Made by a program: the position numbers and the translations under genes. A DNA stretch of 64,000 nt from Eledone cirrhosa (lineage: Eukaryota), in contig OZ024752.1 in NCBI GenBank assembly GCA_964016885.1, positions 48,794,001-48,858,000 of the forward strand, in the 5' to 3' direction. Under the pieces are notes generated by a model. The model saw nothing but the letters and a program-made list of their open reading frames with translations. It searched no databases and was not told the origin of the DNA. Shown in pieces: positions 1,036 through 59,450 of this stretch (positions are counted from its first letter, which is position 1; every line of letters starts with the position of its first letter).

Positions 1036-1250
1036 AAACGAAGGAAATGTGGTAAGGAACCAGGTGAACCATAACGCACCAAAGTACTCAATACTTAGGG
1101 TAGTAGAGTGGGTAATAGGAATGAGTAGGACCCCGACGGCTGAGCTCAAGCCGTTTCGACGGCTAATTCTGGACTCATTAGCCATAAACTGTCCAGAATT
1201 AGCCGTTGAAACGGCTTGAGCTCAGCCGTCGGGGTCCTACTCGTTCCTAT
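1036..1250 (-). mobile_element. Fold-back Penelope-like pLTR fragment (family P1) with hammerhead 3' half
   Basis: 60-bp inverted arms at 1115-1174 and 1191-1250. Each arm reads GAAA-CGGCT-TGAGCTC-AGCCG-TC (stem III plus GUC). The CUGANGA half is absent. Flanked by (AT)n. Related copies at 16121, 3627 and, diverged, about 13655. Confidence 0.65.
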
Positions 1251-1688
1251 ATATATATATATATATATTTATATATATATATATATATATATATATATAT
1301 ATATATATAGAGAGAGAGAGAGAGAGAGAGAGAGAAAGAATATGGACATGTGTAAGTGAATGAATGAGTGAGTCATTTGAACTTGATGAAATAAAATGAT
1401 TGAAATGTATCTGTAGCTGACAAAATATTACAAGTTCCATCTGACAGTAAGGACCTCAAAACCTTTACAGAGCTAACAACTTGTGTCTTTTACTAAACAT
1501 TTACTATATAGGTGGGTGGGTCTTATAGCATTCATATTATTGACTATAAAAAGCTTAATATATTTCAAACTAGCTTTCATCATATGGTGTTGGACAGATA
1601 TCTGTGTATATATAAAAAGTACATGATAAAATGACAAGTCAGTCAATTATATTGATGGTCTCTTGTTTGATGAGTTTAAAACCATTCA

Positions 1689-1990
1689 TTAACCCTTTAG
1701 CATTTAAACCGGCCGTATCCGGCCAGAATTATCTCAACTCTTTCTGTTCAAACTGGCCATAACTGGCTGCTCATAGTTATGTTAAGGTATTGTTCTCAAA
1801 ATATTTACAGTAATATGATATAACCAATATTGTCATCATTAAGCTTGTGTTTGGAACATAACTTAACAAAGGTTCTTATGACTGAATATTTTGAAATAAA
1901 TATAACATTTTCAAACAAAATGTTTTGTATCATAGAACTGAGGGCAGATTGAAACAGTTTAGTGTCAAAAGCTTTAAAACGGGAGTCAAC
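1689..1990. mobile_element. piggyBac-like MITE remnant
   Basis: Begins TTAA-CCCTTTAG. Internal sequence is the reverse complement of the MITE family at 38755-39920. Confidence 0.55.
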
Positions 1991-2719
1991 TATTTCTTTC
2001 TTTTCTCTTTACATACACACACACAGAGGAGTGGATTTAGATGTTGGGGGACCCGGGGCACTTCATATTTGGGGCTTCAGCCCTGGGGGCCCCTCATACA
2101 CACAAAAAAAAAAAAGGCTACACAGCAAACCCCACCAATTTTACATATCAAAGTTAGTTTGGCACAAGTAATTGGAATTGAAAGGTTATACATACAGGTA
2201 TTAAATTCAAAAATTCTAACCATCCTAAAACTAAAAAGCCCAGCTGAGGGCACAAATAAATTGCTACAGCCGTCACTTCTCAATATCTCATTCATTCACT
2301 CATTCATTCATTCTCCTTCACATTTCTCTCTTACCACCCACCCACCCCTAACCAACAGACTCAAATCAATGTTTCCTTCCTTCAAAATATCAATACAAAA
2401 AAACATAAACTTATTCCTATCTGTCACCCTCCTACATTTCACAGTCCCCATAATATCTTCTACTTACAATAAACTCACACAAGGGGCAGGGCTGGTAGGG
2501 TGGTGGGTAGGAGGATCTTCAAATAATAATAATAATAATAATAATAATAATAAATGTGCCAAAAATCAAAAGAGAAAACTCACAAAGGAAAAAGCCTCCA
2601 CAAAACACAAAAACATCCACAACAAAAAATACAGACACCAACAAAGCAACACACTTCCCCAATAATACCAACATCAACATCAACACCATCCCCACAATCC
2701 CCTAAACGCAAATAATAAA

Positions 2720-2900
2720 AACAATAATAATGCTTTCTTTATTAAACCACAAGGGTTTACACAAAGTAAGACATTAAGGACAGTACAGGATAATACAGGA
2801 CGGTAAAAATGGGAATTTCTGCACGTAAAAATACAAAAATAGAGGGTGTAATAAAAAAAGAAGAAAAAAAAAGAAAAACAAAAAATAATAATAATAATAA
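2720..2900 (-). mobile_element. Retroposon 3' end with AATAAA and (ATT)n tail (possibly L1/Tx1-like)
   Basis: Homologous to 63875-63992 (+). Similar ends at about 13120-13245 (-), 14380-14532 (+) and 18330-18465 (+). Clade assignment is an inference. Confidence 0.5.
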
Positions 2901-3342
2901 TAATAACAATATCATAAGCTGCCCAAAGCACTTCCCCATCCATCCTTATTTCTCTATCTCCTTATTTTGCTAGTACCCTCTCTGTCTGCTACCTTACCCC
3001 CACAACACAGGTGTGTAGGGGTGGAGTCGGTGGTTTTGAAATAACATAGGAAAGCTGTCAAAGTTAAGTGTAACGAAACAACAAAACAATTAAAGCATGT
3101 CTTGCCACTTGTGAGACAGTTTATGACATGTCATAGCCAATTATCAATAGAAAATCAATAAACAATTCTTGCCCAATCATATCCCATTGCACAGCAACGT
3201 AATGTGATGTGACTGGATTATATATATATATATATATAGGGTATTTTTAGTAATATTTTTGTAATTTTCTCTCTCTCTCTCTCTCTCTCTCTCTCTCTCT
3301 ATATATATATATATATATATATATATATATATATATATATAT

Positions 3343-57364: not shown

Positions 57365-57564
57365 NNNNNNNNNNNNNNNNNNNNNNNNNNNNNNNNNNNN
57401 NNNNNNNNNNNNNNNNNNNNNNNNNNNNNNNNNNNNNNNNNNNNNNNNNNNNNNNNNNNNNNNNNNNNNNNNNNNNNNNNNNNNNNNNNNNNNNNNNNNN
57501 NNNNNNNNNNNNNNNNNNNNNNNNNNNNNNNNNNNNNNNNNNNNNNNNNNNNNNNNNNNNNNNN
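57365..57564. other. Assembly gap (200 N)
   Basis: Run of n. Confidence 1.
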
Positions 57565-57574
57565 CATGGCAAGA

Positions 57575-58600
57575 ACAACAACAATAAAAAAAAACACCAC
57601 CTCCAACAACAACACCACCATCTCCACCACCACCACCACAACCAACACCACCATCTCCACCCACCACCAACACCACCACCAACAACACCATCTCCACCAC
57701 CATCACCACCAACAACAACACCATCTCCACCACCACCACCACCAACAACAACAACACCATCTCCACCACCACCACTACCAATAACAACACCACCAACTCC
57801 ACCACCACCACCACCAACAACAACAACACCATCTCCACCAACCATCACCACCAACAACAACACCATCTCCACCCACCACCACCACCAACAACAACAACAC
57901 CATCTCCACCACCACCACTACCAATAACAACACCACCAACTCCACCACCACCACCACCAACAACAACAACACCATCTCCACCACCATCACACCAACAACA
58001 ACACCATCTCCACCACCACCACCACCAACAACAACAACACCATCTCCACCACCACCACTACCAATAACAACACCACCAACACCACCACCAGCACCAACAA
58101 CAACAACAACACCTCCACCTCCACCAACAACAACAACACCATCTCCACCACACCAACAACAACAACAACAACAACACCACCACCACCACAACAACACCAT
58201 CTCCACCACACCACCACAACAACAACAACACCATCTCCACCACCACCACAACATTACCAACAACAACACCATCTCCACCACACCACCACCACCAACAACA
58301 ACACCACCAACACCTCCACCAACACTACCAACAACAACATCTCCACCACCACTCCACACCAACACTACAACAAAACATCTCCACCACCAACACTACAAGC
58401 AACACCTGCACCACACCTCCACCACCACCAAAACCATCTCCACCAGCACCACCACCAACAACAACACCACCTCCACCAACACTACCACCAACACCACCTC
58501 ACCACCACCACCACCATCACCACCAACCACACCTACCACAACAACAACAACACCTGCACCAACACTACCACCACCACCACCACCTCTAACCCCCCCCCTT
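57575..58600. repeat. (CAC/CAA)n array with a recurring ACCATCTCC motif
   Basis: Directly visible. Confidence 0.93.
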
Positions 58601-58918
58601 CTCTCAGGTTTTAATCCCTGAAATATCTCTAACCTAAAACAGATCACTTGATGTAAGATGTTGAAATAGCTTAGAGCTACAACACAGCTAAAGACAGGTA
58701 GTACTTCTTATGTATTAAATCAATGAAGCTTATCATCGCTAGATGGGACAAGTGGTTGGGGGATATGGGTGCTGATGAGGGTGAGGGGGGGTAGCAATTC
58801 TATATGTACATATGTGTATGTAAGTGTGTGTGTGTATGTATATATATATATAGACACTCATATACATATATATAGACACTTACACATCCTTTAACTCACA
58901 AACATATATATATATATA

Positions 58919-59450
58919 TCGCATTCTTTAAGGGTATGTCAATATTTATTTATAAAACTGATCTATATTATATTTTATCTGATGAAAGCACACCATAATT
59001 TAACCTACCCCCCACTCTCCTGAGCGTGAATTTAATAAACATTTATCGTACTGCCTCTCTGTTCTGTCCCTGTTCAATTTTTCATTATATATATATATAT
59101 ATAATATATATATATAAATGTAGAAGTTCTATTTAAATTGTTGGATACAACAAGCAAATATTTTTATAACTGATATAAAGCACTCAACAAATTTATTGAG
59201 TAAAAAATACGATATATTAATAAATGGAAACTATATTTATAAAAACCATATTTATTTCATTATACATATTTCAAGGACACAAGTTAAATTATGGTGTGCT
59301 TTCATCAGATAAAATATAATATAGATCAGTTTTATAAATTAAATATTGACATACCCTTAAAGAATGCGACCATTTCTGTTGGAAGCTCCCGATACTATCC
59401 GGGAGCTTCCAACAGAAATGGTCGCATTCTTTAAGGGTATGTCAATATTT
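58919..59450. mobile_element. Penelope-like family P2 locus: plus-strand fragment 58919-59003, minus-strand copy 59118-59400, fold-back arm 59401-59450
   Basis: Homologous to 3343-3625; perfect 50-bp inverted arms at 59341-59390 and 59401-59450. Confidence 0.72.
59253..59316 (-). ncRNA. Minimal type I hammerhead ribozyme (paralogue of 3475-3539)
   Basis: UAUUUUAU-CUGAUGA-AAGCACAC[cauaauuuaacuu]GUGUCCUU-GAAA-UAUGUAUA-AUGAAAUA. Confidence 0.78.

Follow-up and report, generated by a model that had tools for sequence, protein, structure and literature searches.

Why do six families of hammerhead-bearing repeats, lying together in one animal genome, carry a related 10-mer downstream of the ribozyme? 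The question arises from a microsatellite-rich stretch of 64,000 nt from the 3.0-Gb assembly of Eledone cirrhosa (GCA_964016885.1, contig OZ024752.1, positions 48794001-48858000; the whole stretch is called the window), for which an earlier reading of the letters alone, the sequence-only reading, had reported eight such 10-mers and proposed that they belong to a second conserved RNA module. We find that the motif is a predicted bulged RNA stem-loop, RCTC-Y-[stem/loop]-R-TH-GAGY-RCY, of Penelope-like elements (PLEs) of the Hydra clade, and that full-length elements carry it twice, as hairpin 1 and hairpin 2. Inserted copies stop a few bases 5' of hairpin 1 (the short end) or a few bases 5' of hairpin 2 (the long end). 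Judging from these genomic ends, each hairpin probably docks one reverse transcriptase (RT) and fixes its start, both ends of a cut (TA)n target being primed.

All eight 10-mers were found at the coordinates and on the strands reported. The pattern RTHGAGTRCY occurs nine times in the window against 1.94 expected, a count reached in 0 of 100 shuffles; the ninth match, at 45044, is without an ACTC partner and has no hammerhead core in view. When the upstream partner is included (ACTCY-N6..36-RTHGAGTRCY), six matches stand against 0.03 expected, and in an unselected sample of 108 genome pieces (1.134 Mb, the window among them) this two-part pattern was matched 95 times, compared with 4.2 in shuffles. 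A microsatellite follows 85 of these 95 matches, and in the window the elements do run into (AT)n as first described, with the (TA)n starting 45-72 nt past the motif. A density of 95 per 1.13 Mb extrapolates roughly, as an order of magnitude, to some 100,000 copies in this genome; genome-wide pattern counts include overlapping and chance matches, are not copy numbers, and have a weak reversed-pattern control.

The hammerhead scan was run at a threshold giving 69 matches against 1.2 in shuffled sequence over the first 590 kb of the sample, and it returned 135 matches in 31 clusters from the full 1.134 Mb. Downstream of these hammerheads the strict 3' half-site lies in the sense orientation in 9 of the 31 clusters and in antisense in none, which supports a sense-strand bias of the proposed second module, and degenerate forms can be seen by eye in some of the remaining clusters. 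Family 1083, with copies at 1083 and 16269, escaped the scan because its hammerhead has a U3-A8 variant core (a variant described in the relevant passages of PMC4209133), and its window copies do not include that core. At another locus (L316, 4690-4815) the hammerhead of this family combines the U3-A8 core with a long stem II, and the arms of the family's mini-insertions mostly end 60-70 nt upstream of hairpin 1, within the ribozyme. A covariance model of the motif (R1) recovered seven of the eight window sites at E values up to 0.02, four of these being in its own training set, and missed the site at 54852, which has a long loop.

We next consider the fold itself. The sequence-only reading had paired GAGT with an upstream ACTC around an unrelated loop; the pairing stands, but it is really the lower part of a larger predicted structure, in which a 4-bp lower stem (RCTC/GAGY) is followed by a 2-nt bulge on the 3' side and then by a covarying upper stem that opens with a Y-R pair. 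The loop is free, with tolerated lengths from a few to about 100 nt, and the 3' RCT-N-T is conserved and unpaired. Beyond this genome we drew on 88 related loci from metagenome contigs and contigs of metagenome-assembled genomes (MAGs), and among 52 non-redundant instances from other sources the bulge is TT in 38, TA in 7 and TC in 7. One partner named earlier, GCACTT at 35105 for the 10-mer at 35112, is probably wrong: an ACTC at 35079 is likelier, giving six upper pairs whose pairing is kept in family copies.

Upper-stem pairing was not required for inclusion among the 52 instances, and five nearest-site misassignments were kept. Upper pairs 1-3 are nonetheless paired in 48/51, 38/47 and 26/33 instances, against shuffled means of 37.7, 20.5 and 13.7 (0 of 10,000 shuffles as high). 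Since such shuffles ignore kinship, we also mapped the pairs on a FastTree phylogeny of 48 proteins, all from this analysis, with no named references or outgroup. Upper pair 1 underwent at least 6 compensatory changes on this tree, and upper pair 2 underwent 13 changes, with 6-7 of 10 independent pairs concordant and 0 opposite (p 0.016-0.03). A count over structure pairs gave 20 compensatory cells against 6.1 in shuffles, with 100% of positions paired, a percentage that is inflated, its rows being 38 of the 52 non-redundant instances plus 4 hand-chosen window rows. The compensatory changes expected of a conserved RNA stem were thus found in the upper stem, both by shuffling and on the tree. 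One family (L123, at about 6600-7900, and L024) has degenerate hairpins; in the lower stem of its hairpin 1 a C-G pair has become T-A, a compensatory change. We rejected a coding motif, in which the 10-mer would read [IV]E[CY], because the frame is broken by the loop lengths of the families and both hairpins precede the ATG; a splice or promoter signal was set aside as well, as there is no constant YAG and covarying pairs speak against a duplex element.

Full-length elements, first in loci from other sources, proved to hold the motif twice between the hammerhead and the ATG; in most of the read-through copies inspected, hairpin 2 precedes the ATG by about 20-90 nt. The 10-mers of the sequence-only reading are hairpin 1 inside long-ended copies; the second copy and the two kinds of end were missed there. 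A second hairpin past the long end, predicted beforehand, was found in full in five of the six window families and in reduced form in the sixth. Families 5172, 3405, 1083, 35112 and 54852 run on past the long end into GCTC-Y...TH-GAGC-RCT, the junction into hairpin 2 being common to 19 of 21 matches in family 3405 and seen at three loci in family 5172, and some hairpin 2 copies are mutated, that of family 5172 having a 3-nt bulge. The spacing between the hairpins is 71-144 nt in seven families of this genome and about 55-85 nt in other sources. The hairpins and hammerhead cores of the window are as follows.

1083..1109, minus strand: hairpin 1 of family 1083 with 4 upper pairs; it belongs to the long-ended arm of an inverted unit (about 1036-1247) that also has a short-ended arm
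3405..3427, minus strand: hairpin 1 of family 3405 with 3 upper pairs, on the long-ended arm of a unit at about 3345-3680
3525..3531, minus strand: hammerhead core of a family 3405 copy
5012..5018, minus strand: intact hammerhead core, short-ended arm, family 5172 unit
5154..5181, plus strand: hairpin 1 of family 5172 with 4 upper pairs; the copy has its long end at about 5235
6942..6963, minus strand: hairpin 1 of family 6942 with 3 upper pairs; it belongs to the long-ended arm of an inverted short-plus-long unit (about 6897-7090)
7031..7037, plus strand: intact hammerhead core, short-ended arm, family 6942 unit
16252..16278, plus strand: hairpin 1 of family 1083 with 4 upper pairs; it belongs to the long-ended arm of an inverted short-plus-long unit (about 16122-16323)
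34977..34983, plus strand: hammerhead core of a family 35112 copy
35079..35121, plus strand: hairpin 1 of family 35112 with a long loop; the copy has its long end at about 35168
54852..54914, minus strand: hairpin 1 of family 54852 with 4 upper pairs; its 42-nt loop could form an inner helix, and the copy has its long end at about 54780
55018..55024, minus strand: hammerhead core of a family 54852 copy
59179..59201, minus strand: mutated hairpin 1 of family 3405 in which the first upper pair is missing; the copy has its long end at about 59117
59302..59308, minus strand: hammerhead core of the 59179 copy of family 3405

The short-ended inverted arm of family 35112 ends near 33860, and in the inverted unit of family 5172 the short-ended arm reaches further 5' than the long-ended one (155 versus 81 nt). 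The window also holds a copy resembling family 6942 with hairpin 1 partly deleted (43330-43520, plus strand).

We then mapped where inserted copies stop. Across seven families in the unselected sample, 150 mapped ends comprised 77 short ends, 65 long ends, 7 elsewhere and 1 read-through, and among the ends joined to (TA)n, 120 of 121 fell at the two sites. Under exact matching, none of 37 mapped ends reaches the last 2 nt before the hairpin, and 12 of 17 short ends and 17 of 20 long ends agree with position -6; in other sources, all seven mapped ends (five clusters) stop 2-4 nt before the hairpin. At most ends there are short A/U matches to (TA)n. No terminal copy includes hairpin 2. Because the ends sit just before hairpin 1 or just before hairpin 2, the optional tail would correspond to the distance between the two.

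How the two ends are combined is equally regular. Over all loci we found 86 inverted units of a single family, of which 69 have two classifiable ends, and all 69 pair one short with one long end; the remaining 17 have a read-through or unclassified end. This wider set was partly chosen for long ends or open reading frames (ORFs), and the clean figure comes from the unselected pieces, where 38 of 38 inverted units are short plus long (3 more being unclassified) and independent choice would give about half. The same 38 units show the optional extension at one end that is known as a PLE tail. In an end-by-end check that included very short arms, 74 assignments were opposite-type and 2 were same-type, with 44 of 120 ends lacking an assigned partner; by eye, one same-type case (L023) comes from misparsing an internal TA run and the other (L076) resembles a copied neighbor.

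Such units could also arise from one priming event, if the complementary DNA (cDNA) made from the long site snapped back, copied itself, and stopped or was cut at hairpin 1 to leave the short end. Fold-back of this kind, too, yields one short and one long end, palindromic junctions are frequent, and self-priming has been proposed for inverted PLE units in the passages of PMC3846280 that treat them. The arm lengths are divided: in the 69 units the two arms lie within 30 nt of each other in 38, the long-ended arm is the longer in 8, the short-ended arm exceeds the other by more than 30 nt in 12, and 11 are unresolved. In those 12 units the short arm holds sequence missing from the long arm, in the extreme case 3645 nt beside a long-ended arm of 68 nt, and it cannot have arisen by fold-back from the other arm. 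Nor can the short arm be the source of the tail, so that both ends need priming of their own. The long arm, moreover, stops within the tail or at hairpin 1 in 4 of the 38 unselected units, and hairpin 1 resembles hairpin 2 in sequence and in its offset from the end, suggesting one function for both. Fold-back is excluded as the sole route, and we consider it unlikely to account for the pattern.

We therefore favor two primings, each set by its own hairpin, a reading in which binding and initiation are inferred from the genomic ends and from the behavior of a purified PLE protein. In this scheme the GIY-YIG endonuclease (EN) domain would cut both strands of (TA)n, and two protein copies, possibly as a dimer, would each bind one hairpin through its lower stem, UH bulge and unpaired 3' RCU, fixing the RT start about 4-8 nt upstream of that hairpin. 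Each DNA 3' end would pair with 1-6 A/U bases just upstream of the hairpin and then prime, one priming per hairpin and one at each end of the double-strand cut, after which the two cDNAs would join head to head and complete each other, leaving a one-sided tail as long as the distance between the hairpins. Because terminal copies are without hairpin 2, and because many arms extend beyond the cleavage site, only read-through, uncut tandem transcripts or ligated circles would serve as full templates, in agreement with the tandem or circular template proposed in the corresponding passages of PMC4209133. The protein in question, PAc of a Poseidon PLE, cuts and extends both strands in vitro and starts at two sites inside the RNA that coincide with the ends of the tail, according to the sections of PMC11167929 (Frangieh et al. 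2024) that describe these assays; this behavior fits the proposed mechanism by analogy, but PAc belongs to another clade. Of the roles first suggested for the motif, an RT-binding or initiation signal is accordingly the most likely one.

The motif might instead act as DNA, being a recognition or resolution site at which the EN cuts a transposition intermediate at both ends. The passages on the tail in PMC8557442 attribute it to EN-mediated resolution, and the tail of the D. virilis element is needed for EN recognition on plasmids, as reported in a part of PMC11167929; our strand-of-folding test, moreover, leans only weakly towards the sense strand, with 9 G-U against 3 A-C. Compensatory pairing and a free loop length point, however, to a folded single strand and not to a duplex, and hairpin 2, being outside the terminal copies, would be absent from unit-length cDNA. 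We regard a DNA site as quite unlikely.

A third possibility, which we hold to be very doubtful, is that the hairpins are protein sites for translation control, packaging or ribonucleoprotein assembly, and that the ends are set otherwise, for instance by A/U microhomology. Both the closeness of hairpin 2 to the ATG and the A/U matches at most ends suit this explanation, yet the leaders are AT-rich throughout while all but one of the (TA)n-joined ends fall at the two sites. Docking and a role in translation or packaging could coexist. The remaining suggestion, also raised in the sequence-only reading, that the hairpin is a tertiary partner activating the minimal hammerhead, draws on its position downstream of the ribozyme on the same strand and on the cleavage of the PAc ribozyme only with protein present (as stated in part of PMC11167929), which makes an indirect link via bound protein plausible, but it is highly improbable as the main role, given that families differ in how far hairpin 1 lies from the cleavage site (about 25 to about 75 nt) but have a fixed distance to the insertion end, that the motif is present in two copies, and that hammerhead families of another clade are without it.

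Several observations weigh against two primings set by RNA hairpins. Upper pair 1 offers only 4 independent pairs on the tree (4/4 concordant, p 0.125), the lower-stem changes amount to only 2 events, and the lean of the strand-of-folding test is, as said, weak. Junctions are blurred by (TA) microhomology. In family 6942 the second element is reduced to a GCAC/GTGC stem with no upper stem, yet long ends are made. Most arms overlap, which requires strand displacement or two RNAs, and two units mix arms of different families: in the window a (TA)n-bounded unit at 3345-3680 combines the long-ended arm of family 3405 and a short-ended arm of family 1083, which meet without an intervening (TA)n, and the other case is at L009. 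The two enzymes need not share one RNA, and the mixed units may reflect two RNAs in one event, or nesting. As described in the available sections of PMC11167929, PAc has a tail of 30-40 nt, compared with 71-144 nt here, and starts inside an AC-rich stem-loop, no RNA signal being defined there beyond that and a minimal region; our motif was not seen in the readable RNA stretch of the text of its Fig. S1.

Which elements carry the hairpins? Five of the six window families could be linked to ORFs for RT proteins with a C-terminal GIY-YIG domain; read-through copies of window families encode such proteins, as does P0001, a chance ORF in the sample that represents the fifth compared family of this genome. 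The marks of the Hydra clade given in the passages of PMC8557442 (Craig et al. 2021) on this group are DKT (not DKG), RWK/RWR, a CxCX5C linker, a C-terminal GIY-YIG domain, a hammerhead and (TA)n targeting. DKT, the RWK-type motif (in its RWR form) and the CxCX5C linker are all present in families 1083, 3405, 6942 and P0001; family 5172 has DKT, CxCX5C and RLRW, and family 35112 has DKT and RW[RK]. Both the hammerhead in the pseudo-long terminal repeat and insertion into (TA)n are present in the families with the motif. Comparison by eye of the P0001 and L141 proteins with an alignment excerpt published in PMC8557442 indicates a GIY-YIG domain without the CCHH motif. Pfam gave no match for any PLE-like ORF, P0001 included, among the 14 proteins submitted, the one match being a zinc finger in another protein.

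The families had been called unrelated, a description that does not hold: four window families and P0001 have proteins 35-54% identical and form one clade in the FastTree phylogeny. Because these five compared families form one clade, the motif is inherited, yet it persists while the flanks diverge. Tandem periods range from 3.5 kb (L316) to 6.7 kb (L110-L111), longer than the generally short (<3 kb) elements of the Hydra clade as characterized in PMC8557442, whose passages on the clade make no mention of hairpins. The size given there describes the clade and does not define membership of it. Family 54852, with tandem units of 1.9-2.1 kb (L322, L323) that hold a hammerhead and both hairpins and gave no tblastn match to two Hydra proteins, is probably a non-autonomous derivative. 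The P0001 family is very young, with dozens of copies at 99-100% identity, an open frame of 830 codons and 6.7-kb tandem units; the loops of its two hairpins measure about 60 and about 100 nt, and the window holds a tail-only remnant of it (59490-59540, minus strand).

In the loci from other sources, 90 hammerheads fall into 36 clusters, with hairpin 1 in 27 of 31 testable clusters and both hairpins in 22 of 36. Of the four clusters without hairpin 1, L170 has a visible variant and the other three may belong to different elements. By eye, published Hydra consensuses from hosts including a coral, a sea cucumber and a copepod also contain the motif: both hairpins are visible in Hydra-1_Ajap, hairpin 1 in Hydra-2_Ajap and Hydra-2_Amil, and divergent forms in Hydra-1_Crog, while Hydra-1_Obim shows only a degenerate form and the Hydra-1_Amil consensus stops before the motif. 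We conclude that the motif is real and that, in a single PLE clade, it is conserved in several animal phyla. Hydra-type PLEs with (TA)n junctions also lie on ten contigs (L238-L247) that are filed under bacterial MAGs; these contigs are probably host DNA in bins. Three further loci (L129, L045 and L071) are tandem arrays of hammerhead units of about 310-420 bp, like non-LTR retrozymes, and the L045/L071 family has a conserved stretch of its own directly after the short end.

The sequence-only reading did not recognise the hairpin as a named motif, and it is apparently unnamed. An Rfam 15 search of the L316 leader gave one chance match (E 3.1), and on the window the best 150 of 579 matches were microRNA models on microsatellites, none at the gathering score. 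Neither the motif, nor its duplication, nor the one-of-each rule for the ends was found described in Rfam or in openly readable literature, most subscription papers, including a 2004 endonuclease study, lying outside the reach of the search; the motif is apparently undescribed.

It is conceivable, and we put it forward tentatively, that EN-bearing PLEs in general use programmed double priming, with clade-specific pairs of RNA docking hairpins loading two RTs onto the two sides of a double-strand cut, each priming at a fixed register. A Neptune-type family of this genome, with a CX4CxxC linker, is without the Hydra motif, and the covariance model found no match in three Neptune-type loci. This family (L356, minus strand near 1500; window about 43730-43940, minus strand) has short and long ends of its own, each followed at once by ATATCG, with a possible pairing partner and a small bulge further on, a candidate for a clade-specific twin signal; a repeated motif after both ends is what general double priming would predict. 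If true, this general scheme would account for the tails and the inverted units, and also for why tandem or circular templates are needed.

These findings bear on how PLEs recognise their RNA and on why their insertions have a one-sided tail. The cis-element of about 25 nt, the start register and the one-of-each rule can all be tested with the existing in vitro PLE assay. Should the mechanism be correct, it would provide a compact, movable signal for RT starts and a two-ended integration route distinct from the target-primed reverse transcription of long interspersed nuclear elements. For annotation, curated consensuses that stop at the short or the long end miss hairpin 2.

The proposed mechanism has parallels in several known systems. 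In LINE-1 twin priming, both target ends prime on the RNA and an inverted 5' segment results; there the second priming is occasional, uses variable sites chosen by complementarity and leaves abutting arms, whereas here double priming would be the rule, its sites are apparently fixed by hairpins, and the arms usually overlap. RNA structures that are bound by an RT and set the start of copying are familiar from the template boundary and anchor stems of telomerase, hepadnavirus epsilon and the R2 3' untranslated region, and PLE RTs are the sister group of the telomerase reverse transcriptase. The element described here differs from these in being duplicated, in lying 3' of the start, and in not itself being copied from that start. 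For PAc, the available sections of PMC11167929 report neither a second copy of a motif nor a one-of-each rule; they do describe two fixed ends bounding an optional tail and an AT-rich target, together with an upstream hammerhead, cutting and extension of both target strands and a predicted dimer, all of which it has in common with the system proposed here.

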